In this document: piece after piece, positions 1 to 10,411 of the stretch
Position numbering within the stretch: position 1 is the first letter of the stretch
Layout of the letters: each line of letters begins with the position of its first letter
Source of the DNA: a virus
Lineage: Duplodnaviria; Heunggongvirae; Uroviricota; Caudoviricetes
Virus record (IMG/VR): IMGVR_UViG_2531839473_000009
Length of the DNA: 10,411 nt
Strand: one strand, 5' to 3'
Program-made: the position numbers and the translations under genes
The notes under the pieces: generated by a model
Databases searched by the model: none
Told to the model about the DNA's origin: nothing
The model's input: the letters and a program-made list of their open reading frames with translations, nothing else

Positions 1-1242
1 ATGGCGAGAAAAACACCCCCATTAACCACAGTGCAGATCAAAGCAGCCAGACCAGCGCAAAAGGAGTACACCCTACAGGACGGCGGTGGGCTTTTTCTCC
101 TGGTAAAACCGTCCGGATCAAAACTCTGGCGATTTTCCTACTACCGACCATCGGACAAAAAAAGAATATTGCTGAGTTTTGGATCGCTTGAAGATGTTTC
201 CCTGGCTGATGCCAGAAAACGCCGTAGCGAGTACAGGACGTTAATCAGTGCCGGAACTGACCCGCAGGACCATGAGAAGAAAAAACGAGAGGCAGAGGCC
301 CGAAGACAAGGGAACACGTTCGAAAATGTGGCGGCGGCATGGTACCAGGTGAAAATCAGCCAGAATCTGGCCCCCAACACGATTAAAGACATCTGGCGTT
401 CGCTGGATAAATATGTATTCCCGTTCATCGGCAACACGCCAATAGATACCCTCACTGCCCGAAGGTTCGTTGAGGTGCTTACACCCATCAAGGAGCGCGG
501 CAACCTGGAAACACTCAAGCGGGTTTTACAGCGCGTTAATGAGGTAATGGATTACGCCGCCAACAGTGGGCTGATTGATGCCAATCCGGCTATGAATGTG
601 CGTAAGGCGTTCCCCTCCCCTGTAAAAAAACATATGCCAACAATCCGCCCCGAACAGTTGCCGGAGCTTATGCAGGCTTTATCCGTATCAGCAACAGAAC
701 GGCAGACCAGATTACTGATTGAATGGCAGCTACTGACTGTAACCCGTCCGGTTGAAGCATCGTCAGCACGCTGGGAAGAAATCGACATGGACGCGCAACA
801 ATGGACGATCCCCGCCGGACGCATGAAGATGCGGCGTGATCACGTTATCCCGCTTTGTAGTCAGGCTATGGCGGTACTGGAGGCCATGAAGCCAATCAGC
901 CACCACCGCGAGCACGTTTTCCCTAGCCTGAAAGACCCACGGCAGCCTATGAACAGCCAGACCGCCAACGCAGCATTGCGGCGAATGGGATTCGCTGGCG
1001 TGCTGGTGTCTCATGGATTACGCGCCATATTCAGCACAGCAGCGAACGAGGAAGGATTCGAGCCGGACGTAATCGAGGCCGCACTCGCACACGTGGACAC
1101 GAACGAGGTAAGGCGAGCATATAACCGAAGTAACTACCTGGAAAAGCGCGTGGTGCTTATGCGCTGGTGGGGGGAATTTGTAGAGGCCGCAGCAACCGGA
1201 GTGACCATAGCCAGTGGTAAAAGGGGTATCCGTGCCGTGTAA
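1..1242 (+). CDS. int: Tyrosine-type site-specific integrase, P4/CP4-57 family (413 aa, apparently complete)
   Basis: N-terminus MARKTPPLTTVQIKAARP..YTLQDGGGLFLLVKPSGSKLWRFSY matches the arm-binding domain of P4-type integrases. C-terminus HGLRAIFSTAA...ALAHVDTNEVRRAYNRSNYLEKRVVLMRWW carries the H-x-x-R box and the conserved RAY..(catalytic Tyr)..LMxWW tail. ATG at window position 1, so the attachment site and any tRNA target lie upstream, outside the window. Confidence 0.92.
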   Translation: MARKTPPLTTVQIKAARPAQKEYTLQDGGGLFLLVKPSGSKLWRFSYYRPSDKKRILLSFGSLEDVSLADARKRRSEYRTLISAGTDPQDHEKKKREAEARRQGNTFENVAAAWYQVKISQNLAPNTIKDIWRSLDKYVFPFIGNTPIDTLTARRFVEVLTPIKERGNLETLKRVLQRVNEVMDYAANSGLIDANPAMNVRKAFPSPVKKHMPTIRPEQLPELMQALSVSATERQTRLLIEWQLLTVTRPVEASSARWEEIDMDAQQWTIPAGRMKMRRDHVIPLCSQAMAVLEAMKPISHHREHVFPSLKDPRQPMNSQTANAALRRMGFAGVLVSHGLRAIFSTAANEEGFEPDVIEAALAHVDTNEVRRAYNRSNYLEKRVVLMRWWGEFVEAAATGVTIASGKRGIRAV

Positions 1243-1343
1243 CTGTACAAAAAACCAGTAAAAGCGATGCAAACCATGCTAAACCATCGTATAATCACCA
1301 TATACAGAGAGACCCGACTCTTGAAATTCAAGGAGTTATCCGA

Positions 1344-1586
1344 GTGTTTTTCAATGAAAAGGTATCCCCTGCCTATGGTGAAGGCCTTCAACTGGCCTTA
1401 ATGGCAAATCGTGAATTCTGGTCAACGTACGATCCGGAAGACAAATCAACTGCCCCCACAAAACACGAGGTAGTCAGTTTTTTGCGCTCGCGTGGCGCAT
1501 CGAAAAATCTGGCTGAAAGTATCGACAAGGTGCTGAGGCCCACCAGCCTTAAATGCGGTGGGCGACCTAAGAAGTGGAAACGGTAA
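1344..1586 (+). CDS. Hypothetical small protein (80 aa), GTG start
   Basis: Open frame with a strong Shine-Dalgarno (CAAGGAG, 1329-1335) 8 nt upstream of GTG at 1344, followed by an intrinsic terminator. Basic C-terminus (GGRPKKWKR). No family recognised. Confidence 0.5.
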   Translation: MFFNEKVSPAYGEGLQLALMANREFWSTYDPEDKSTAPTKHEVVSFLRSRGASKNLAESIDKVLRPTSLKCGGRPKKWKR

Positions 1587-1592
1587 TCACAA

Positions 1593-1621
1593 TAGCGGCC
1601 CCTTGCGGTCGCTATTTTTTT
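1593..1621 (+). terminator. Rho-independent terminator after the 80-aa gene
   Basis: Stem TAGCGGCC / GGTCGCTA (8 bp with one G-U pair), 6-nt loop CCTTGC, then T7 run (1615-1621). Confidence 0.5.
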
Positions 1622-1665
1622 GCAGAAAGAAAAGCGTAATCAATAAGATAAAAAACAGTGGGTAC

Positions 1666-1702
1666 CGTTTTAAAACGGTGGGTACTGTTTTTCCCGCCCT
1701 GC
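1666..1702. promoter_or_regulatory. Direct repeat plus perfect 16-bp palindrome upstream of alpA (candidate operator)
   Basis: GTGGGTACCGTTTT and GTGGGTACTGTTTT direct repeats flank the perfect palindrome ACCGTTTTAAAACGGT (about 1674-1689), roughly 70 bp upstream of the alpA start. Confidence 0.35.
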
Positions 1703-1756
1703 CCTGTTTTACCGTATTTATCACCGGAATACGCCGGATTAACGAGGTAAAACATA

Positions 1757-1963
1757 GTGGAAACAATCAGAAAAATTCTTACCCGTCAGGAAGTAAAAAA
1801 TATTCTGCGCATCAAGGCAGACAGTTCGCTACAGGACATGATCAACGCCGGAAAATTCCCGAAAGGCTTCAAAATCGGTCTGCGCCGTGTTGGCTGGTAT
1901 GAAGATGAAGTGCTGGCCTGGCTGAAAGAGCGCGAGGAAGAAGCGCGCGGAACGGCTGCGTAA
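1757..1963 (+). CDS. alpA: AlpA-family phage transcriptional regulator / excisionase-like DNA-binding protein (68 aa, GTG start)
   Basis: Sequence ..LTRQEVKNILRIKADSSLQDMINAGKFPKGFKIGLRRVGWYEDEVLAWLKER has the AlpA/Vis/TorI signature (G-FPK ... R-VGW-E-EV-AWL). SD GAGGT sits 7 nt upstream of GTG. Position right after int is typical. Confidence 0.85.
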   Translation: METIRKILTRQEVKNILRIKADSSLQDMINAGKFPKGFKIGLRRVGWYEDEVLAWLKEREEEARGTAA

Positions 1964-2111
1964 TGGTGTGAGGCGTAACGCGATGAACATAACAAAAAGC
2001 GCCCCGTTGCCGGAGCGCCCTTGCGAACAATTAACCTGCTGCGAAAAAAATGGATCAGTGCAGTGGAATTATATCAACCGTGTGACGAAGCGCCACAATT
2101 GCCGGATAACA

Positions 2112-2142
2112 GGCAAAACAAAGGCCACCCGCTACGGTGGCC
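2112..2142 (-). terminator. Possible terminator for the leftward small regulator gene
   Basis: Hairpin GGCCACC-CGCTAC-GGTGGCC (2123-2142). On the - strand it is followed by the T-rich run TTTGTTTTG. Lies between the convergent alpA and minus-strand gene. Confidence 0.35.
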
Positions 2143-2245
2143 CCTCGACACAAGCTACACGTTATCCCCAACGCATGAGCATAGCCAACAATGCCACATT
2201 TGCGGCTGGTGGGCAAAGCGTAACCGGAAAAAAATTCCGGTGGAG

Positions 2246-2425
2246 CTACTCCTGCTCTTTGGCCTTGCGGCGCTGGCGGCGTTTGATCTCGCCGCGCATG
2301 GCTGCACTTATAAACTGCCCTGTACTTTCGCCTTCTTCTTTCACGTTTTCCATGCCTTCAATAATTTCATGGGCAATACGTGCAGTTACAGATTGTGATT
2401 TTGCATTCTTTGGACCTGTTGCCAT
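2246..2425 (-). CDS. Small DNA-binding protein (59 aa), candidate ribbon-helix-helix repressor
   Basis: Start chosen at the internal ATG (MATGPKNAKSQSVTARIAHEIIEGMENVKEEGESTGQFISAAMRGEIKRRQRRKAKEQE) because a consensus SD (AAGGAG) lies 6 nt upstream; the longer track ORF (to 2464) lacks one. Pattern of a short beta-strand (SQSVTARI), two helices and a basic tail resembles Arc/CopG/MetJ-type proteins. Transcribed divergently from an operator-rich promoter region. Confidence 0.6.
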   Translation of the reverse strand: MATGPKNAKSQSVTARIAHEIIEGMENVKEEGESTGQFISAAMRGEIKRRQRRKAKEQE

Positions 2426-2445
2426 GTCTAACTCCTTATGTTTTT

Positions 2446-2527
2446 GGTGTAAGACAATATACACGAAAAAAAATTATTTTGAAGGGTTGACGTGTAAGAC
2501 ACTATTATTTTATATTGTGTCTTACAC
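2446..2527. promoter_or_regulatory. Divergent promoter pair with three copies of a GTGTAAGACA(C) operator motif
   Basis: Rightward promoter: TTGACG (2487-2492), 18-bp spacer, TATATT (2511-2516). Leftward promoter on the - strand: TTCAAA, 16-bp spacer, TATATT (+ coordinates 2456-2483). Operator copies: GTGTAAGACA 2447-2456, GTGTAAGACAC 2492-2502 and its perfect inverse GTGTCTTACAC 2517-2527. The copies overlap the -35 and transcription-start regions of both promoters. Confidence 0.6.
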
Positions 2528-2624
2528 CTTGTTGATACAAGGTGCAGAAACGACGAAACCCGGCAGTGCGCTAACACTAACCGGGCTTCTAACCACCAAC
2601 GATAACGAGAGTATCGAGGTAGCT

Positions 2625-3239
2625 ATGTTAAATCATACCATACACCCGCAAGGGCGGGACTCGCACAACCTGAATAAATATATCTGGCGTTTTATCGCCC
2701 TGAGCACAGCACAACCGCGCGTGATTACCATTGAGGCCACCAGCGAACAGGAAGCACGCCAGAAAAACCAGTTGATCGCCATTGCCAGCCAGGGCTATGA
2801 TTTATCCGCACCAGCAAAATCTGGTGCCGGGATTGGCGTCCTGGTATTTAACGAAGCGCACAACACGCGCCCTGCGTGTTTTTTTGTGCCGGATAGTCAC
2901 ACCTTATCAATGGTGGGCTGTATGGGGGCGGAGCAATCCGCGCCGGGTTCTTCGTTAACCGGTTACGCCAACCCTGTACAGTCCACCGCCAGCGAAATTG
3001 GCGTTTCCTGCGGTGGGTTTATTAAACCTAACGAAGAGGCTGCCAACATGGCTACTATCCCTGCCCTCGTACATTCTCAAACTGCCTTTATCTGGCGCTT
3101 TATCATCTTTGGCGCGTCAGAATCCCAAATCATCCACGTAACCGCCTGGACGGAACGCGAAGCGCGTAGTCGTTGCCCGTCCGGTTGTGTTGCTGTATTC
3201 GCCGCCCGTATTCGTCAGGAGGTGCGCCATGTGCAATAA
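2625..3239 (+). CDS. Icd-like (host cell division inhibitor-like) protein, long form with two tandem Icd-like modules (205 aa)
   Basis: First ATG downstream of the rightward promoter, in the only long open frame. N-terminal module MLNHTIHPQGRDSHNLNKYIWRFIALSTAQPRVITIEATSEQEAR carries the HPQGR...IWRF...SE-EAR pattern I associate with Icd-like small proteins of P4-like islands. No stop codon separates it from the second module. The 1968..2624 part of the track ORF is rejected. Confidence 0.35.
   Translation: MLNHTIHPQGRDSHNLNKYIWRFIALSTAQPRVITIEATSEQEARQKNQLIAIASQGYDLSAPAKSGAGIGVLVFNEAHNTRPACFFVPDSHTLSMVGCMGAEQSAPGSSLTGYANPVQSTASEIGVSCGGFIKPNEEAANMATIPALVHSQTAFIWRFIIFGASESQIIHVTAWTEREARSRCPSGCVAVFAARIRQEVRHVQ
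3048..3239 (+). CDS. Icd-like small protein (63 aa), internal in-frame start of the same frame
   Basis: ATG at 3048 preceded by GAAGAGG 8 nt upstream. Product MATIPALVHSQTAFIWRFIIFGASESQIIHVTAWTEREARSRCPSGCVAVFAARIRQEVRHVQ is the more canonical Icd-like module (FIWRF ... EREAR ... FAxR) and has the size typical of that family. Its stop overlaps the next gene start. Confidence 0.45.
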   Translation: MATIPALVHSQTAFIWRFIIFGASESQIIHVTAWTEREARSRCPSGCVAVFAARIRQEVRHVQ

Positions 3240-3459
3240 AAACACGCCGGACGCAGCAGGCGAAGCATTGAAAGTACTGATACATGCGCTTGTGGATATA
3301 AATTGCATGGTAGAGATCATGGAGAGGAAATCACAGTCGGAGTACGACAAAAGAAAATTTAAAACAATAAAAATAATTATCAAAAACTCACTGACAAAAG
3401 CTACAGACATCCTCAATGAGGACACTAAAAGAATCAGGGAGAAACTGTGTGATGCATAA
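3229..3459 (+). CDS. Hypothetical protein (76 aa), AT-rich accessory gene
   Basis: ATG at 3229 with consensus SD AGGAGG (3216-3221). Overlaps the upstream stop by 11 nt. Local GC is about 30-37% (hand count of 60-nt blocks) versus about 55% in the flanks. Predicted lysine-rich product, no family recognised. Confidence 0.5.
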   Translation: MCNKNTPDAAGEALKVLIHALVDINCMVEIMERKSQSEYDKRKFKTIKIIIKNSLTKATDILNEDTKRIREKLCDA

Positions 3460-3679
3460 AATACCCTTTAATGTTCTTATTCATTCTGAGAATGCATTAA
3501 TCCGCGCAAAGGAAATGGAGGCATTATTACTTAAGTTAATGGAAGTGCCGGAAAATGGCGATGAATCATATCCCATGATGTTTTCTGCCGTGCACACATT
3601 ATTAACGCCAGTAATTAACGAATTAAATACAGTGATGGCAATTCACGAGAATAATAAAGCGCATCACACCGGAGAATAA
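3452..3679 (+). CDS. Hypothetical protein (75 aa), AT-rich accessory gene
   Basis: ATG at 3452 (MHKIPFNVLIHSENALIRAKEMEALLLKLMEV...) with SD-like AGGGAGA about 9 nt upstream. Overlaps the previous stop by 8 nt. Same low-GC block. The track ORF start at 3416 is rejected because it has no SD. Confidence 0.5.
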   Translation: MHKIPFNVLIHSENALIRAKEMEALLLKLMEVPENGDESYPMMFSAVHTLLTPVINELNTVMAIHENNKAHHTGE

Positions 3680-3684
3680 AAACC

Positions 3685-3984
3685 ATGAAACAGAAAAATT
3701 CTGGCTTTACTGCCAGTGGCCTCGCTCGGCCTGAAATCCGCCCCGGCGATATTTTCCGGGATAACTACGGCGGCACGGTAACGATTAAAAGCGTGGCGGG
3801 ACGGTGCGTAACTTACCGCCGTGAAGGTTACGAATATGATTGCGTGATGCCTGTTTATCAGTTCCGGCGTGATTTTTCTCTGGTACAGACCGCGCCGCAT
3901 AACGTGCCCACCAGCAACGCCAGGGCACGGGCAAACATCCAGAAGCTGAAAACCATGATTAACGGATTCAGGGGTAAAAAATGA
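3685..3984 (+). CDS. Hypothetical protein (99 aa) immediately upstream of and coupled to the primase gene
   Basis: ATG at 3685 with GGAGA 9 nt upstream. Its stop overlaps the primase start (ATGA, 3981-3984). Occupies the position held by small helper-interaction genes (epsilon-like) in P4-type left operons, but no sequence similarity can be asserted. Confidence 0.6.
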   Translation: MKQKNSGFTASGLARPEIRPGDIFRDNYGGTVTIKSVAGRCVTYRREGYEYDCVMPVYQFRRDFSLVQTAPHNVPTSNARARANIQKLKTMINGFRGKK

Positions 3985-5735
3985 AACTGGCACCGAACGT
4001 AAAACAGCAGTCACGCGGCATAAAACACAAAGAAACAGAAGTCATTATTTTTGCGGGTAGTGATGCCTGGTCACACGCAAAACAATGGCAGGAACATGAC
4101 GCGCGTCTGGCCGGAGATAATGAGCCTCCTGTGTGGCTTGGGGAGCAGCAGTTATCAGAACTGGATAAGCTGCAAATTGTGCCGGAAGGCAGAAAATCCG
4201 TGCGCATATTCAGGGCCGGATATCTTGCGCCAGTAATGATAAAGGCGATTGGCCAGAAGCTGGCGGCGGCAGGCGTACAGGATGCAAATTTTTATCCTGA
4301 GGGTATGCACGGCCAAGAGGTGCAGAACTGGCGCGAATATCTGGCCCGTGAGCGACAGAATCTTTCTGATGGTCTGGTCATTGAGCTTCCGGTAAAGCAA
4401 AAGGCGCAACTTTCGCAGATGGCGGACAGTGAGCGCGCGCAGCTGCTTGCCGATCGCTTTGATGGCGTTTGCGTACATCCTGAAAGTGAAATCGTTTACG
4501 TATGGCGCGGCGGGGTATGGTGTCCGGTCAGCACAATGGAACTTAGCCGCGAAATGGTGGCGATCTATTCAGAGCACAGGGCCACTTTCAGCAAGCGCGT
4601 AATCAATAACGCCGTGGAAGCGTTAAAAGTTATTGCCGAACCAATGGGCGAGCCGTCCGGCGATTTGCTGCCGTTCGCCAATGGTGCGCTTGACCTGAAA
4701 ACGGGGGAATTTTCCCCGCACACGCCGGAGAACTGGATCACCACGCACAACGGTATTGAGTACACGCCACCAGCACCAGGGGAGAATATCCGCGACAACG
4801 CGCCAAACTTTCATAAATGGCTTGAGCACGTAGCCGGAAAAGACCCGCGCAAGATGATGCGTATATGTGCCGCGCTGTACATGATTATGGCGAACCGGTA
4901 CGACTGGCAGATGTTTATTGAGGCCACCGGAGACGGCGGGAGCGGTAAAAGTACATTCACGCACATAGCCAGCCTTCTGGCAGGGAAACAGAACACGGTG
5001 AGCGCGGAGATGACATCGCTTGATGATGCTGGTGGACGTGCGCAGGTTGTCGGGAGTCGTCTTATCGTCCTGGCTGACCAGCCGAAATATACAGGCGAAG
5101 GAACGGGCATCAAGAAAATCACGGGCGGCGACCCCGTGGAAATTAACCCGAAATATGAAAAGCGTTTTACGGCGGTAATCAGGGCGGTGGTGCTGGCTAC
5201 CAACAATAACCCGATGATATTCACCGAACGGGCCGGAGGTGTGTCACGTCGTCGCATAATTTTCCGTTTCGACAATATCGTCAGTGAGGCCGAAAAAGAC
5301 AGGGAGCTACCGGAAAAGATTGCGGCTGAAATCCCTGTCATTATCCGCCGATTGCTGGCGAACTTTACCGACCCTGAGAAGGCACGGGCTTTACTACTGG
5401 AACAGCGTGACGGTGATGAAGCACTGGCAATAAAGCAACAGACGGATCCGGTTATTGAGTTTTGCCAGTTCCTGAATTTTCTGGAGGAAGCGCGCGGCCT
5501 GATGATGGGTGGCGGTGGTGATTCAGTGAAGTACACGACCAGGAACAGCCTTTATCGCGTCTATCTGGCGTTTATGGCGTACGCAGGCAGGAGCAAACCG
5601 CTAAACGTAAATGACTTTGGCAAGGCTATGAAGCCAGCCGCGAAAGTTTACGGACATAAATATATTACGCGGAAAGTTAAGGGAGTAACGCAGACTAACG
5701 CAATAACAACAGACGAGTGCGACGCGTTTTTATAA
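3981..5735 (+). CDS. Replication initiator: primase / SF3-type helicase (P4 alpha-like / D5 family, 584 aa)
   Basis: Walker A motif ATGDGGSGKST (nt about 4922-4954) and a Walker B-like RLIVLAD a short distance downstream. Large size, position after alpA and directly upstream of an iteron cluster match the pri-rep genes of PICI/P4-like satellites. Confidence 0.88.
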   Translation: MKLAPNVKQQSRGIKHKETEVIIFAGSDAWSHAKQWQEHDARLAGDNEPPVWLGEQQLSELDKLQIVPEGRKSVRIFRAGYLAPVMIKAIGQKLAAAGVQDANFYPEGMHGQEVQNWREYLARERQNLSDGLVIELPVKQKAQLSQMADSERAQLLADRFDGVCVHPESEIVYVWRGGVWCPVSTMELSREMVAIYSEHRATFSKRVINNAVEALKVIAEPMGEPSGDLLPFANGALDLKTGEFSPHTPENWITTHNGIEYTPPAPGENIRDNAPNFHKWLEHVAGKDPRKMMRICAALYMIMANRYDWQMFIEATGDGGSGKSTFTHIASLLAGKQNTVSAEMTSLDDAGGRAQVVGSRLIVLADQPKYTGEGTGIKKITGGDPVEINPKYEKRFTAVIRAVVLATNNNPMIFTERAGGVSRRRIIFRFDNIVSEAEKDRELPEKIAAEIPVIIRRLLANFTDPEKARALLLEQRDGDEALAIKQQTDPVIEFCQFLNFLEEARGLMMGGGGDSVKYTTRNSLYRVYLAFMAYAGRSKPLNVNDFGKAMKPAAKVYGHKYITRKVKGVTQTNAITTDECDAFL

Positions 5736-5749
5736 TTTTTTGTAATTGC

Positions 5750-5975
5750 TGTCTACCCTGTCTACCTGAGTAAAGAAAAATACATTTAATTCAGTGCATT
5801 AAGTTATGTAGATAGCCTTTTTTTACTATCTACCCACTATCTACCCTCTCTACCTGATTTTACCTGAATCAGACAGGGAGGTAGACACGGGGTAGATAGT
5901 GGATAAAAGCACTCTACCCCGCTGAAAGCCGCGCCATTACTGGCATGAGGGCCACTAAGGTAGATAAGGTAGACA
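5750..5975. repeat. Iteron cluster, candidate origin of replication
   Basis: At least five direct copies of core TCTACC (5752, 5761, 5829, 5840, 5849, plus CTCTACCCC at about 5913) and four inverted copies GGTAGA (5880, 5891, 5959, 5969). Many are spaced 9-11 bp apart in a non-coding gap directly downstream of the primase/helicase gene. Confidence 0.6.
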
Positions 5976-6023
5976 AGGGGAGGCACAACTCAAAACTTTT
6001 TAAACGAGGGGGTAAAAATAAAT

Positions 6024-6302
6024 ATGCACACTTCAGGGAAATTTAATAAATCACTCAAAAAACGCAGAGACAGAACAGAACCGAAATATCGCGCGTTAGA
6101 CATGACAGAGCACGCTTTAAAGGTGGCAATCAGAACGATAGACCGCCACGCGGGGGAAGGATACGCGAAAGCACATCCCGACCTGATAAGCGCATTCATG
6201 ACCACGACGGCGGCAAATTTTGCCACGCTGACAGAGCGGGAGATTGCCGAAGCGGAACAGGTAACAACAATCAACGTTAAAACCGGAGAGGTGGAATCAT
6301 GA
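6024..6302 (+). CDS. Hypothetical protein (92 aa) upstream of and coupled to ssb
   Basis: ATG at 6024 with G-rich SD (GAGGGGG) 11 nt upstream. Stop overlaps the ssb start (ATGA). No family recognised. Confidence 0.5.
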   Translation: MHTSGKFNKSLKKRRDRTEPKYRALDMTEHALKVAIRTIDRHAGEGYAKAHPDLISAFMTTTAANFATLTEREIAEAEQVTTINVKTGEVES

Positions 6303-6721
6303 CAGCACAGATAGCCGCTTACGGGCGGCTGGTGGACGACCCGCAGGTAAAACAGACCAGCAAGGGCACACCGATGACGCTGGCGCGTATGGCGGTCCCC
6401 CTTCCGTGCAGCCAGGCAGATGACGGAACGGCGACGATGTGGTTATCCGTCCTGGCATTTGGCAGACAGGCCGAAGCACTGGAAAGGCACCGCAAGGGTG
6501 AACTCCTGAGCGTGGCGGGTAACATGCAGATCAGCCAGTGGACTGGGCAGAACGGAGAAACGCGGCAGGGCTGGCAGGTTATCGCAGACAGTGTAATCAG
6601 TGCGCGAACGGCGCGACTGGGCGGCAAAAAAGGTCAACAGGGCCAGGCTACTGACGCGCTGAACAGGGCAAAACAACAGGCGGGGAATGATGATCCGTAC
6701 GGGGATAACATACCGTTTTAA
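6299..6721 (+). CDS. ssb: Single-stranded DNA-binding protein (SSB-like, 140 aa)
   Basis: OB-fold region aligns by eye with E. coli SSB (GRLVDDPQVK versus GNLGQDPEVR; WLSVLAFGRQAEALERHRKGELLSVAGNMQISQWTGQNGETRQGW versus [43 protein letters not shown]). Gly/Gln-rich linker and acidic C-terminal tail ending DDPYGDNIPF (canonical SSB tip is DDDIPF). Confidence 0.8.
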   Translation: MTAQIAAYGRLVDDPQVKQTSKGTPMTLARMAVPLPCSQADDGTATMWLSVLAFGRQAEALERHRKGELLSVAGNMQISQWTGQNGETRQGWQVIADSVISARTARLGGKKGQQGQATDALNRAKQQAGNDDPYGDNIPF

Positions 6722-6736
6722 GCGACGAGTGACAGA

Positions 6737-6760
6737 AGCCGGAGCAATCCGGCTTTTTTA
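6737..6760 (+). terminator. Rho-independent terminator after ssb
   Basis: Perfect 7-bp stem AGCCGGA / TCCGGCT with GCAA loop, followed by T6. Part of a roughly 65-bp element repeated at 9171-9245. Confidence 0.7.
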
Positions 6761-6939
6761 CGGGTCCTCCTGGCGGGGTGGGCCTGAACACGGGGCGGGA
6801 GGCGCGGAAAAAAGCGCATTTTTGTGATTTTATCGTCATCATCATCATGAGCGTAATTTATTGTTTTTAATTGTTTTGATGCAAAAAAGATGATGGTTGT
6901 GGTTAATTTTTGTTCGACATCTTTGCAGGCAGATAAAAA

Positions 6940-6976
6940 AGCCCGATAAGGTCAGAGGTGGCTTATCGGGCTTTTG
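6940..6976. terminator. Second, bidirectional-looking intrinsic terminator
   Basis: Perfect 11-bp stem AGCCCGATAAG / CTTATCGGGCT with 11-nt loop, A6 run upstream and T4 downstream. Confidence 0.55.
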
Positions 6977-7052
6977 CATATGAGGCTTTTTGGTGCACTG
7001 ACACACATGATCGGGATCATCATTTCATAATTTGCAACACAACTCAACATCA

Positions 7053-7080
7053 TTGCATAAAATGCAATCATGATTATAAT
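7053..7080 (+). promoter_or_regulatory. Sigma70-type promoter upstream of the capsid module
   Basis: TTGCAT (7053-7058), 16-bp spacer, consensus TATAAT (7075-7080). The -35 element lies inside the palindrome TTGCAT-AAA-ATGCAA (7053-7067); further TTGCA half-sites are upstream (about 7031-7037). Confidence 0.45.
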
Positions 7081-7113
7081 CAGAACTGGATGAACATCCA
7101 GTTCTGATTTTTT
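7081..7113 (+). promoter_or_regulatory. Perfect 12-bp-arm hairpin plus T-tract directly downstream of the promoter -10 (candidate leader terminator/attenuator or operator)
   Basis: CAGAACTGGATG-AA-CATCCAGTTCTG (7081-7106) followed by A then T6 (7108-7113), about 25 nt upstream of the first capsid-module start codon. Confidence 0.45.
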
Positions 7114-7136
7114 AAGTCAAAGAGGAATTTCTTACT

Positions 7137-7343
7137 ATGGCTGAAGAGAAAAAAGGCGGTGTTTCGGTGTACATAAGCCCCGAAATCGTGGAGGTGCTCA
7201 AGCAGCGCCACAAAAAAAACTATGAGGCTGGCGTGGCGGCTGGACTGGATCCGCTGATGACGCCGGAGCCGTCGATAGGTTCACTTGTACGCTCTTATTT
7301 ACTTGCGGCGCTTGGGATGCATAAAAATTATGGGGGTGAATAA
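7137..7343 (+). CDS. Hypothetical protein (68 aa), first gene of the capsid module
   Basis: ATG at 7137 with AGAGGA upstream. Stop TAA overlaps the capsid gene ATG (TAATG at 7341-7345). No family recognised. Confidence 0.5.
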   Translation: MAEEKKGGVSVYISPEIVEVLKQRHKKNYEAGVAAGLDPLMTPEPSIGSLVRSYLLAALGMHKNYGGE

Positions 7344-8398
7344 TGGCAGGCAAAGCAACGGCACTTAACACTAACCAGCTTTTCATGTACCTGAATCGCG
7401 GGGATATTGCGGAATTTAAATTCAGTCCGCTGTTTACCACGCTGTTTTTCCCGAACGTGGCGACATTCAACACCCAAAACATCATGCTGGACACCCTGGA
7501 CATTGAAGAGGTTACGATGTCGGCGTTTTGTTCGCCTATGGTGGGTAGTCAGGTCCAGCGCGATAAAGGGTACGAAACCAGCACGATTAAACCTGGATAC
7601 ATGAAGCCGAAGCACGAAATCGATCCAACGAAAACCATCATACGTATGGCTGGAGAAGATCCGGCACAGCTTAATGACCCAACCTATCGCCGTATGCGCC
7701 TGATTACTGGCAACATGCGCCGCCAGATAAACGCGATTAAAGCGCGCGTGGAATGGCTGGCGGTGAATGCGATAACGACCGGAAAAAACATCATTGAGGG
7801 CGAAGGCATAGAACGCTATGAAATCGACTGGAAGATACCGGAAAAAAACATCATAGAGCAGGCCAAAGGCCGTAAATGGTCCGAGCAGGACAAAGAAACC
7901 CACGATCCAATCTATGATATCGAGCTTTATGCGGATCAAGCATGTTGCCCCGCCAACGTCATGATCATGGGCGCTGAGGTATGGCGAACGTTACGCAGCT
8001 TTAAAAAATTCCGCGAACTGTACGATCTTTCCCGTGGTTCAGAGTCCTCCGCAGAGCTGGCCTGTAAAAACCTGGGCGAAGTGGTGAGCTTTAAAGGATA
8101 TCTGGGCGATATTGCCCTTATCGTCTATTCCGGCAAATACACTGACAGCGACGGCACCGAAAAATATTTCCTTGAGCCTGATTTGCTGGTCCTGGGCAAC
8201 ACCAACAATAAAGGGCTGGTGGCCTATGGTGCGATTATGGATCAGGAAGCGGTCAGAACGGGCGCAACGCAAAACATGTTTTACCCGAAAAACTGGATTG
8301 AGGACGGCGATCCGGCGATTGAGTACGTGCAGACGCACAGCGCACCGCAGCCGGTTCCGGCAGATATTCGCAAATTTGTTACCGTCAAAATTGGTTAA
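7343..8398 (+). CDS. Major capsid protein, lambda gpE family (351 aa)
   Basis: Collinear similarity to recalled lambda E along the whole length: FKFSPLFTTLFF versus FKFDPLFLRLFF; PGYMKPKHEIDP versus PGYVKPKHEVNP; DPTYRRMRLI versus DPAYRRRRII; IVYSGKY...LVLGNTNNKGLVAYGAI versus VVYSGQY...MVLGNTQARGLRTYGCI; YPKNWIEDGDPAIEY versus YPKNWVTTGDPAREF; C-terminus FVTVKIG versus FVSVQLA. SD GGGGTG 6 nt upstream. Confidence 0.9.
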   Translation: MAGKATALNTNQLFMYLNRGDIAEFKFSPLFTTLFFPNVATFNTQNIMLDTLDIEEVTMSAFCSPMVGSQVQRDKGYETSTIKPGYMKPKHEIDPTKTIIRMAGEDPAQLNDPTYRRMRLITGNMRRQINAIKARVEWLAVNAITTGKNIIEGEGIERYEIDWKIPEKNIIEQAKGRKWSEQDKETHDPIYDIELYADQACCPANVMIMGAEVWRTLRSFKKFRELYDLSRGSESSAELACKNLGEVVSFKGYLGDIALIVYSGKYTDSDGTEKYFLEPDLLVLGNTNNKGLVAYGAIMDQEAVRTGATQNMFYPKNWIEDGDPAIEYVQTHSAPQPVPADIRKFVTVKIG

Positions 8399-8409
8399 CG
8401 GGGGATTCT

Positions 8410-8745
8410 ATGGACACTCCATACATTGAGTTATTTGCAGGCAGTCAGCAGGTTGCCACGACGCTGGTACATTTTGCCGCTGATGCTGGCGTTATTCAGG
8501 AATTTACCCCGCTGATGCTGGCGGACAATGGCGAATTTAAGCCGTGGGATGGTCAGGAATCTGGCAAGGCTGTTTATCTGACGGCGTATCCCGTGGACAC
8601 GTCAACGCAGAAATCAGCACAGTGTTACAAGACGGGGATATTCAATATTGCCGCCGTTAACTGGCCTGAGAGCGTCGACACCGACGCGAAAAAATGTGCC
8701 GCCTTTGCGGGTTCTGGTGTATCTGTTCAGCCGCTGGCGCGATAA
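8410..8745 (+). CDS. Head decoration protein, lambda gpD family (111 aa)
   Basis: TPLMLADNGEFKPWDG versus lambda D TPLMLDTSSRKLVAWDG; YKTGIFNIAAVNWPESVDTDAKKCAAFAGSGVSV versus [34 protein letters not shown]. Same length class as gpD; SD GGGGGA upstream. Lies downstream of the E-like gene, the opposite order to lambda. Confidence 0.85.
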   Translation: MDTPYIELFAGSQQVATTLVHFAADAGVIQEFTPLMLADNGEFKPWDGQESGKAVYLTAYPVDTSTQKSAQCYKTGIFNIAAVNWPESVDTDAKKCAAFAGSGVSVQPLAR

Positions 8746-8758
8746 GCAGGGGGGAACG

Positions 8759-9172
8759 ATGGCAACGAATGAAAGTATCATGGCGCTACCGCTGGCGAGT
8801 AAATTTAAAGCTGAAGCGCGGGCAATGGCTGACAGATGTCTATCAACCTACGAAGCTATATATCAACTTAACAAACTGGAAGAACAGGACAAGCCGCGCG
8901 CTGATGCGATTATGTCGCTTCATGAATCTGACGACTATCAGCCGCTGTTACGTGCAATGGCAAACGTGCCTTGTATTGATGTTGATACGGCTAAAAACAT
9001 CCTGAACATGACCATAGAACAGGAACGCCAGAAGGTTGCACCAGAGCTTACCGCAGCCTTTGAAAACTTTATGGACATGCACAGCCCACAAGCCGTATCA
9101 GCTGGCATGGCATACGATGGCAGAAACCCGGGCGATGACGGCGACATTGATCGCATACTGAAAACCATCTGA
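8759..9172 (+). CDS. Hypothetical protein (137 aa), last gene of the capsid module
   Basis: ATG at 8759 with G-rich SD (AGGGGGG) 6-8 nt upstream; the longer track ORF start (8648) overlaps the decoration gene and lacks an SD. Acidic C-terminus. Followed by an intrinsic terminator. No family recognised. Confidence 0.55.
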   Translation: MATNESIMALPLASKFKAEARAMADRCLSTYEAIYQLNKLEEQDKPRADAIMSLHESDDYQPLLRAMANVPCIDVDTAKNILNMTIEQERQKVAPELTAAFENFMDMHSPQAVSAGMAYDGRNPGDDGDIDRILKTI

Positions 9173-9177
9173 GACAA

Positions 9178-9200
9178 GGCCGGAGAAATCCGGCTTTTTT
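9178..9200 (+). terminator. Rho-independent terminator after the capsid module (copy of the ssb terminator element)
   Basis: Stem GGCCGGA / TCCGGC with GAAA loop, then T6. The surrounding 9171-9245 is about 75% identical by eye to 6731-6800. Confidence 0.7.
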
Positions 9201-9333
9201 GCGGGTCCTTTCCGGCATATGGACCTGTTACGGGGCGGCGACCTCGCGCGTTTTCACTATTTATGACGTTTTTCCGAGAAGGTGCCACCACCACCACTTG
9301 ATTAATATTTAACCATGCAGTTGAGGTAACATT

Positions 9334-9768
9334 ATGATTGATAAAGCTTGTTTTGTAAGCCAGCAGGAAATAGCTGAACATTTCCAGGTAAACAGAACCA
9401 CTATTCGCGCATGGACCAAACAGGGGATGCCCTATCTTAATGCGGATCGCGGAAAGTCTGGCGGTTATCACATCGGGCATACATTGCTTTGGTCTTCAGG
9501 TAAAAGCCATTTTGAGACCATCGGATATCACGTAGAAACCAGTGCGCTGGAAAAAATTATGGTTGCCAGGCTGCTTTCATCTGAGCGTGACGAGTACTCC
9601 AGTGAAGAAACAGAACATCGATTTGATGAAGGTTTGCAGATTTACGGCTATGCACCGGAAGATGTGAGCAAGGCACGAAATAAAATGGCTGGCTTTCTGG
9701 CTGGGTGGCGTCATGCAGTAAGCGTTCGCCGTGCCAGCATGGAGCAATCAGCCGATACAGAACAGTAA
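9334..9768 (+). CDS. Nu1-like small terminase subunit / winged-HTH DNA-binding protein (144 aa)
   Basis: N-terminus VSQQEIAEHFQVNRTTIRAWTKQGMPYLNADRGKSGG resembles lambda Nu1 KKQLADIFGASIRTIQNWQEQGMPVLRGGGKGNE (the TI..W...GMP.L....GK motif of its winged helix). About 35 aa shorter than Nu1 with an unrelated C-terminal half. SD GAGGT 5 nt upstream. A MerR-like regulator cannot be excluded. Confidence 0.55.
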   Translation: MIDKACFVSQQEIAEHFQVNRTTIRAWTKQGMPYLNADRGKSGGYHIGHTLLWSSGKSHFETIGYHVETSALEKIMVARLLSSERDEYSSEETEHRFDEGLQIYGYAPEDVSKARNKMAGFLAGWRHAVSVRRASMEQSADTEQ

Positions 9769-9926
9769 AGCCGATAACTTGTTAATCACTCGCAGCAATG
9801 CATGTGATTTGTGCACACTTTCGGTTAACTGGTTCGATGTCCGGTTTTAGTGTCTGTTTTTTGCGCATGTCCGGTTCATGGAAAGCATGTTTTTATATTT
9901 TTCATATGGTTAACTTACAGAGAAAC

Positions 9927-10411
9927 TGGATTTGCCCCTATATTTCCAGACATCTGTTATCACTTAACCCATTACAAGCCCGCTGCCGCAGATATTCCCG
10001 TGGCGAGCGATAACCCAGCGCACTATGCGGATGCCATTCGTTATAATGCTCGAACGCCTCTGCAAGGTTCTTTGCTGCCGTTAACCCGTCTGGTTTGGGC
10101 ATGATACTGATGTAGTCACGCTTTATCGTTTTCACGAAGCTCTCTGCTATTCCGTTACTCTCCGGACTCCGCACCGCCGTGTTCTTCGGTTCAAGTCCCA
10201 ACATCCGGGCGAACTGGCGTGTTTCATTAGCCCGGTAGCATGAACCATTATCCGTCAGCCACTCCACTGGAGACGACGGAAGATCGTTGCCGAAGCGGCG
10301 TTCCACCGCTCCCAGCATGACGTCCTGTACTGTTTCACTGTTGAAGCCGCCAGTAGTCACCGCCCAGTGCAGTGCCTCACGATCACAGCAGTCCAGCGCG
10401 AACGTGACACG
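9927..10411 (-). mobile_element. IS2 (IS3 family), right end and 3' part, truncated by the window edge
   Basis: Terminal sequence TGGATTTGCCCCTATATTTCCAGACATCTGTTATCACTTAACC matches the remembered IS2 end adjacent to the orfB stop, including the conserved TTTCCAGACA...TATCACTTAA inverted-repeat core. Element boundary placed at about 9927. Target-site duplication cannot be checked because the other end is outside the window. Confidence 0.8.
9938..10411 (-). CDS. insD: IS2 transposase OrfB (InsD), C-terminal part; 5' end outside the window
   Basis: The reverse frame is open to the window edge (..[40 protein letters not shown]...[19 protein letters not shown]...[24 protein letters not shown]). 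It matches the IS2 InsD C-terminus from memory and has the DDE-domain tail typical of IS3-family OrfB. Confidence 0.9.

Follow-up and report, generated by a model that had tools for sequence, protein, structure and literature searches.

Described cos sites of islands and helpers

The closest described relative of the locus analysed here is EcCICFT073, a phage-inducible chromosomal island (PICI) with two cos sites (PMC6092414). Its redirecting-phage-packaging protein, RppA, binds the TerS of the helper phage and redirects it to the first of these sites, cos1 (PMC6739421). As for the second, a cloned cos2 gives plasmid transduction, although weakly with lambda and phi80; deletion of cos2 from EcCICFT073 sends lambda-mediated transfer up rather than down, and deletion of both cos sites abolishes transfer (PMC6092414). 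Subsequent exchanges of cosB established that it is the cosB of cos1, and not the one in cos2, on which RppA-TerS acts, such that only plasmids with the cosB of cos1 were transferred with RppA, and that transfer of the island requires cos1 rather than cos2 (PMC6739421). Neither the 2018 nor the 2019 paper recognises a phage cosB in the island (PMC6092414, PMC6739421), and Murialdo and Feiss, in their 2022 review, deal with cos1 only (PMC9026076). The PICI papers leave open why an island would carry a second cos with a cosB that matches no phage, a point to which the phage match described below offers a concrete answer that can be tested.

In lambda, binding of TerS at the R boxes, in combination with an IHF bend, places TerL on cosN (PMC9026076). 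The cosB of N15 is a single R3 (PMC9026076). SaPIbov5 and P4 carry a copy of the helper cos, through which the helper terminase packages the satellite with no satellite-encoded specificity factor (PMC6092414).

The island and its packaging module

The window, by which is meant the whole stretch of 10,411 nucleotides that was analysed (IMG/VR record IMGVR_UViG_2531839473_000009), is a PICI of the EcCICFT073 family and of the Rpp type. Pfam matches on it comprise a tyrosine integrase (1-1242), a D5-type primase (D5_N), an SSB, a lambda E-type capsid protein and a D-type decoration protein, and its backbone has int, primase and replication genes and a cos1 upstream of rpp, without tail or lysis genes. 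Positions 9300-9930 are 97.8% identical to E. coli CFT073, where the gene order is that of the window. EcCICFT073 is flanked there by roxA and phoQ, whereas the window's island lies at another chromosomal site, beside autotransporter and narP genes. An exact match to the RppA protein led to scaffold GL872041.1 (assembly GCA_000190955.1; locus L006), which is 100% identical to window positions 3334-10411 (0 mismatches in the 7078 bp compared), and it is solely from this identical scaffold that the window's cosN2 and complete R3 box are known. The features of the packaging module are as follows.

9198-9213, plus strand: cosQ of cos1 (TTTGCGGGTCCTTTCC), matching the cosQ of EcCICFT073 cos1 in Fig S1A of PMC6739421
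9233-9244, plus strand: cosN of cos1 (GGGCGGCGACCT), the window's only exact match, with homology to the cos1 already published
9334-9768, plus strand: rppA (the 'Nu1-like' gene), 144 aa, redirecting-phage-packaging protein, TAA stop at 9766-9768
9769-9826, unstranded: PICI-specific linker from the rppA stop to cosB2, holding TGTGCACA and the first GCATGT copy
9837-9846, minus strand: R1 box of cos2 cosB, AACCGGACAT on the cos2 reading strand, offset 137 from cosN2
9867-9876, minus strand: R2 box of cos2 cosB, offset 107 from cosN2
9888-9915, minus strand: putative I1-like spacer, rich in A/T, in which 9900-9912 (TTTCATATGGTTA, offset 71) is IHF-like
9922-9926, unstranded: left copy of the target duplication GAAAC, its last 3 nt being a remnant of box R3
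9927-10411, minus strand: IS2, right inverted repeat at 9927 (TGGATTTGCCCCTATATTTCC..., TGGATTTGCCCCTATATTTCCAGACATC...), transposase genes on the minus strand, running off the window end
L006 6594-7757 (scaffold): IS2, with the left inverted repeat ...GGGGGCCAGTCTA at its far end
L006 7758-7769 (scaffold, beyond IS2): right GAAAC copy and complete R3 (GAAACCGGACAT)
L006 7807-7818 (scaffold; L001 11673-11684 in the CFT073 locus), minus strand: cosN2 (GGGCGGCGACCT), beyond IS2 and outside the window
Upstream of cosN2: cosQ2 (TCGGGTCCTT), likewise beyond IS2 and outside the window

The RppA of the window is identical to that of CFT073 at 137 of 144 residues, and the functionally tested residues R21-T22, L51 and F121 are kept. 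Its winged-helix domain is Nu1-like; the match to PHROG 57 (terminase small subunit) is confined to residues 7-46, and a PDB search with RppA returns a sole relative, RppC (6hlk/6hn7, E=6.5e-31). The site upstream of the gene, cos1, is intact and is the RppA-dependent packaging site of the island.

Two observations on cos1 may be recorded at this point. The sequence CCACCACCACCAC lies at window positions 9285-9297, bp 53-65 from the cohesive end, which is the position at which Murialdo and Feiss proposed an Rpp-binding 'R3-PICI' in cos1 (PMC9026076); the cos1 of a sister PICI in strain Nissle 1917 has GGTGGTGGTGG, the reverse complement of CCACCACCACCAC, at nearly the same offset (L010 1292-1302). 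Separately, a 65-bp inverted repeat (cosQ-cosN, 91% identical) is common to cos1 and cos2 and flanks rppA (window 9202-9266 and L001 11715-11651), an arrangement which could favour inversion of the rppA segment.

An inverted cos site downstream of rppA

An earlier note on this DNA had placed the right end of IS2 at 9927, about 160 bp after the stop of the Nu1-like gene, and the measured distance from the rppA stop to the IS2 right inverted repeat is indeed 158 bp. It had also described a 10-bp direct repeat, three GCATGT copies and a palindrome in this interval, and all of these are present: ATGTCCGGTT in exact copies at 9837-9846 and 9867-9876, GCATGT at 9800, 9865 and 9885, and the TGTGCACA palindrome at 9810-9817. 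Taken alone, the ATGTCCGGTT pair is weak evidence and is not significant; when the whole window was shuffled 200 times, 19 of the shuffles reached at least two matches at no more than one mismatch. What makes the repeats convincing is the combination of a third, inverted copy in the IS2-free relatives, the fixed offsets of the copies from cosN and the retention of the boxes in phages.

In this regard, the CFT073 locus is the informative one. The third ATGTCCGGTT lies there, inverted, exactly at the point of the window's IS2 insertion, and 40 bp past that point the minus strand carries a second exact cosN. Moreover, reverse-complementing window positions 9800-9926 gives the sequence labelled 'EcCICFT073 cos2' in Fig S1A of PMC6739421. 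These three observations identify the segment as the cosB side of cos2, read right to left. In other words, positions 9827-9926 on the minus strand are the distal part of the cosB of an inverted cos2, consisting of a putative I1-like spacer, R2 and R1, and the packaging module runs in the order cos1, rppA, cos2, with cos2 facing the other two. The element is the same as the EcCICFT073 cos2 of Fillol-Salom et al. (2018, PMC6092414; 2019, PMC6739421), inverted downstream of rppA and 97.8% identical, except that the EcCICFT073 site is whole whereas that of the window is split by IS2 between R3 and I1. Both cos2 and rppA have already been described and tested, and the cos2 of an Rpp-type PICI is a known element.

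In its IS2-free form, cos2 is a complete lambda-type cassette, cosQ-cosN-R3-I1-R2-R1, in which I1 is putative. It has a lambda-type cosN with an upstream cosQ at lambda-like spacing, followed by three R boxes, R3 standing ~50 bp from the cohesive end and R2 being inverted with respect to R3. The offsets, with the first base of the cohesive end as the reference point, compare as follows with those of phage 21 (annotated) and lambda (box core).

R3: cos2, 50; phage 21, 49; lambda, 52
I1/IHF-like: cos2, 71; phage 21, 71
R2 (inverted): cos2, 107; phage 21, 106; lambda, 113
R1: cos2, 137; phage 21, 149; lambda, 154

The likeness to the lambda-like cosB sites (lambda, phi80, 21 and Gifsy-1, all R3-I1-R2-R1) extends to three R boxes, an A/T-rich spacer with a putative IHF site and an inverted R2 at ~107 bp. 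The box itself differs, however: it is ATGTCCGGTT in cos2, CGTTTCC in lambda and (C)ATGTCGG in phage 21, and the orientation of R1 differs too, since in cos2 it is that of R2 and in lambda and phage 21 that of R3. The IHF-like TTTCATATGGTTA has an A/T tract upstream and agrees by inspection with 7 of the 9 specified positions of WATCAANNNNTTR, which is a weak match. No box is common to cos1 and cos2, and cos1 is without ATGTCCGGTT.

The site also differs from a phage cos in what stands next to it. It faces the 3' end of rppA and is not, in the island, directly upstream of a cognate small-terminase gene; the island therefore has the cos2 site but not its gene. The orientation of cos2, the orientation of R1 and the weak IHF match all count against the explanation that is favoured below.

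A phage counterpart of cos2

In a search of a phage collection, Escherichia phage PhiR12_1 and its relatives match the cos2 cassette at 93.3% identity over 179 bp. The match spans cosQ to R1, the cosB part being about 99% identical (1-2 differences), and the homology stops at or near R1, within about 10 bp past it. In PhiR12_1 the cassette lies directly upstream of a gene annotated as terminase subunit Nu1, which starts about 50 bp past R1. A literature search on the PhiR12 phages (PV3405xx records) gave nothing relevant, and both the match to the PhiR12_1-type cos and the box-level R3-I1-R2-R1 reading of cos2 are absent from the literature searched; we regard them as a modest new insight.

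The variation amongst these phages is instructive. From 78 IMG/VR contigs that encode a PhiR12-type Nu1 at 99% identity, 23 distinct cosN-to-Nu1 sequences were obtained, and in these the R boxes are found at their offsets in 23/23 cases for R3, 23/23 for R2 and 22/23 for R1 (offset 136/137), while the spacers between the boxes vary. Boxes that are kept amid variable spacers are the pattern expected of protein-binding sites. The PhiR12 Nu1, of the WP_000235436 type, is matched by the Pfam Phage_Nu1 profile at residues 49-150 only, and its N-terminal ~48 residues do not align to lambda or phage 21 Nu1, as would be expected if its cosB specificity were different. The likeliest ligand of the ATGTCCGGTT boxes is thus the N-terminal DNA-binding domain of a PhiR12-type Nu1, and not RppA, a proposal which draws on the conserved boxes and the distinct N-terminus. 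PhiR12-type prophages form a lambdoid lineage and are common: of 5426 complete E. coli genomes, 1141 (about 21%), O157:H7 strains included, carry this cos together with its Nu1.

Taken as a whole, we consider it probable, and hold the view with good confidence, that cos2 is a PhiR12_1-type cos cassette whose repeats are the R boxes for the Nu1 of that lineage, split in the window by a recent IS2.

Some further features of these sequences and of the segment deserve mention. The cos variant of IMGVR_UViG_2675903621_000013 has lost one R box and a spacer, as if by recombination between R2 and R1 as direct repeats. The R box of PhiR12 type (CATGTCCGG, L002 3130-3180) and that of phage 21 (CATGTCGG, L008 216-331) are one extra C apart, despite N-terminal Nu1 domains that are unrelated in sequence. 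Of the other motifs in the segment, GCATGT is not conserved across the phage cos variants, except for those bases that fall inside box R2, and the phage-homologous cassette does not include the TGTGCACA palindrome, so neither is supported as a functional motif. Iterons of a replication origin were also considered and set aside, as the 2018 paper places the ori of the island with pri (PMC6092414) and the boxes stand at cosB offsets in phages.

The IS2 insertion

Positions 9927-10411 have 100% matches in 4443 of 5426 complete E. coli genomes, to copies whose annotation reads 'IS3-like element IS2 family transposase', and the gene products of the element have rve and HTH_Tnp_1 domains. Both ends of IS2 are present in the scaffold, where it spans 1164 bp including 236 N (L006 7081-7316), as against 1331 bp for a full-length IS2; the window end (10411) is 2 nt before this 236-N gap. 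Past the gap, the scaffold continues with the IS2 left end, GAAAC, CGGACATGG..., cosN2, cosQ2, an ORF of 93 aa (PHROG 1561) and the remaining island. GAAAC on the two sides of IS2 is a 5-bp target-site duplication. The checks that the earlier note had suggested have thereby been answered, since both the duplication and the continuation of the island are found in the source scaffold and, in IS2-free homologues, the sequence runs uninterrupted into a cos site; its statement that IS2 sits in island sequence and interrupts a functional element is likewise correct, the element being cos2.

On removal in silico of IS2 and one GAAAC copy, the sequence is identical at 731/731 positions to two IS2-free loci (L003 and L005), and positions 3334-9926 have 0 mismatches to the island of L005; AP025751.1 holds the identical IS2-free island. 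From this exact restoration and the lack of mismatches it follows that the insertion is clean and recent. An IS2 insertion at cos2 is found in 0 of 5426 complete E. coli genomes, and an exact scan of genome contigs gave no match to the rppA-side IS2 junction. As a mutation, an IS2 hit in cos2 is trivial and belongs to ordinary genome noise.

The consequences for cos2 can be set out from its geometry. IS2 separates cosQ-cosN-R3 from I1-R2-R1, which are now about 1.3 kb apart, so that the R3-I1-R2 arrangement is removed and initiation at cos2 should be impaired; a weakened or lost initiation site is the expected outcome. Owing to the target duplication, however, a complete R3 (AACCGGACAT on the plus strand) still adjoins cosN2, and since R3 is the most critical box in lambda and the sole box in N15, cos2 may keep some activity. 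The post-insertion site, with R3 alone beside cosN2, in this sense resembles the minimal cosB of N15 (PMC9026076), the difference being that the single R3 is native to N15 whereas in the window it is an accident of insertion. The allele would thus amount to a natural mutant in which R3 is separated from I1-R2-R1.

Mobilisation through cos1 and RppA, on the other hand, should be unaffected by IS2. Indeed, the suggestion in the earlier note that the insertion marks a decaying or domesticated island finds no support: cos1, rppA and the other genes are unchanged with respect to the IS2-free twin, with which 3334-9926 is identical, and loss of cos2 from EcCICFT073 raises lambda transfer (PMC6092414). 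More speculatively, a polar effect of IS2 on the downstream 93-aa ORF is possible, and, each unit being 1.3 kb longer, a different multimer size may now fit a lambda head; island size is reported to affect transfer (PMC6092414). An open frame (L006 7623-8165) links the inside of the IS2 left end, by way of cos2, to the 93-aa ORF, and a gene caller gives for it a fused product of 162 aa; this product is probably an artefact, although read-out from IS2 into the 93-aa ORF is conceivable.

Alternative explanations

The repeats could in principle be the island's own cosB, bound by the adjacent RppA either alone or together with the TerS of a helper, and the earlier note had suggested as much, calling them plausible cosB-like sites for the neighbouring Nu1-like protein. 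They do adjoin rppA, and the Nu1-like winged-helix domain of RppA also speaks for this reading. The cosB-like character has held up but the partner has not, because the swap experiments tie RppA-dependent transfer to the cosB of cos1 only (PMC6739421), because ATGTCCGGTT is missing from cos1, and because the boxes are conserved in phages which have their own Nu1 and no rppA. Nor does the site lie downstream of the gene in order to serve its product, as that note had supposed; it is instead an inverted cos2, directed towards the gene's 3' end. We regard binding by RppA as very unlikely. Scarcely credible, too, is a regulatory role for the segment, whether as promoter or operator of the 93-aa ORF downstream or as the terminator of rppA. 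The segment is intergenic and a modest hairpin follows the rppA stop, in the linker (z -2.05, without a T-run), yet a scan of the plus strand finds no sigma-70-like promoter between rppA and the 93-aa ORF, contrary to the promoter region that the earlier note had entertained, and no terminator with a T-run in the segment; RNA folding of the repeat segment is unremarkable on both strands (z +0.6), and homology to a phage cosB accounts for the repeats. An RNA or terminator reading of the segment was dropped on account of these folding results.

A more serious proposition is that cos2 is a relic or decoy, left by recombination with a PhiR12-like phage, which has no helper-specific role or which offers just a second cosQ-cosN to a lambda-type terminase. 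The increase in lambda transfer on deletion of cos2 (PMC6092414) would accord with this, as would the tolerance of the IS2 hit in the window's strain, and the near-identity of cosB2 to one phage variant (about 99%) suggests a recent acquisition. Transfer by lambda and phi80 can do without cos2, or is even mildly harmed by it, and on that account the site could be a relic. Weighing against it, the whole unit from cosQ to R1 is kept with precise boundaries and correct spacing, cos2 occurs in two lineages of island whose overall identity is only about 93-94%, and the PICI of Nissle 1917 keeps an inverted cos2 with another type of cosB at the same place, which suggests that the position is maintained. 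A relic or decoy is accordingly improbable in our estimation, and a PhiR12_1-type cassette with R boxes for its Nu1 remains the preferred explanation.

Proposed division of labour and helper range

If the PhiR12_1-type cassette functions as its phage counterpart would be expected to, by analogy with lambda, a PhiR12-type TerS would occupy R3 and R2, with an IHF bend between them, and so position TerL on cosN2. A helper of PhiR12 type could then cut and package the island directly through cos2, with no need of RppA, while cos1 and the RppA-TerS heterodimer would serve helpers of the lambda, phi80 and 21 types. A split of labour of this kind fits the weak activity of cloned cos2, the lack of response of cosB2 to RppA and the rise in lambda transfer on cos2 deletion. 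The proposed use of cos2 is alike to that of the helper-cos copies in SaPIbov5 and P4 (PMC6092414), except that the window's island also has a second, Rpp-dependent cos of another specificity.

It is conceivable, and we put it forward tentatively as something a little short of an even prospect, that islands of the EcCICFT073 family are pirates of dual specificity, using cos1 with RppA for lambda, phi80 and 21 and cos2 for the PhiR12 lineage, the Nu1 of which would probably be immune to RppA. Other PICIs, that of Nissle 1917 among them, would on this view have cos2 cassettes with specificities of their own, and cos2 would act as an exchangeable module of helper range. Were this confirmed, the predicted helper range would be wider for islands that move virulence genes among E. 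coli, and a class of R-box and Nu1 specificity would be added to those named in the cited papers (lambda/phi80, 21, N15 and Gifsy-1).

Related islands and strains

The PICI of Nissle 1917 (NZ_CP022686.1) is about 93% identical to window positions 1-9274, with rppA replaced by a full small terminase of the Nu1 family, 180 aa in length (L010 1390-1932). Its inverted cos2, at the same place as that of the window (L010 1935-2170; cosN at 2112-2123, minus strand), has CATGTCGGTACTTCTCGAA at the R3 position, which is phage-21-like, and its best phage match is PhiR5_1 (83.6% over 151 bp). With such a different cosB in Nissle 1917, it follows that cos2 cassettes differ between islands.

In strain ZH063 (NZ_CP014522.1; positions 1246333 and 1285500), a prophage with the PhiR12-type cos and Nu1 lies ~39 kb from an island identical to EcCICFT073, a pair which fits a helper relation and is a single case among the matches listed.
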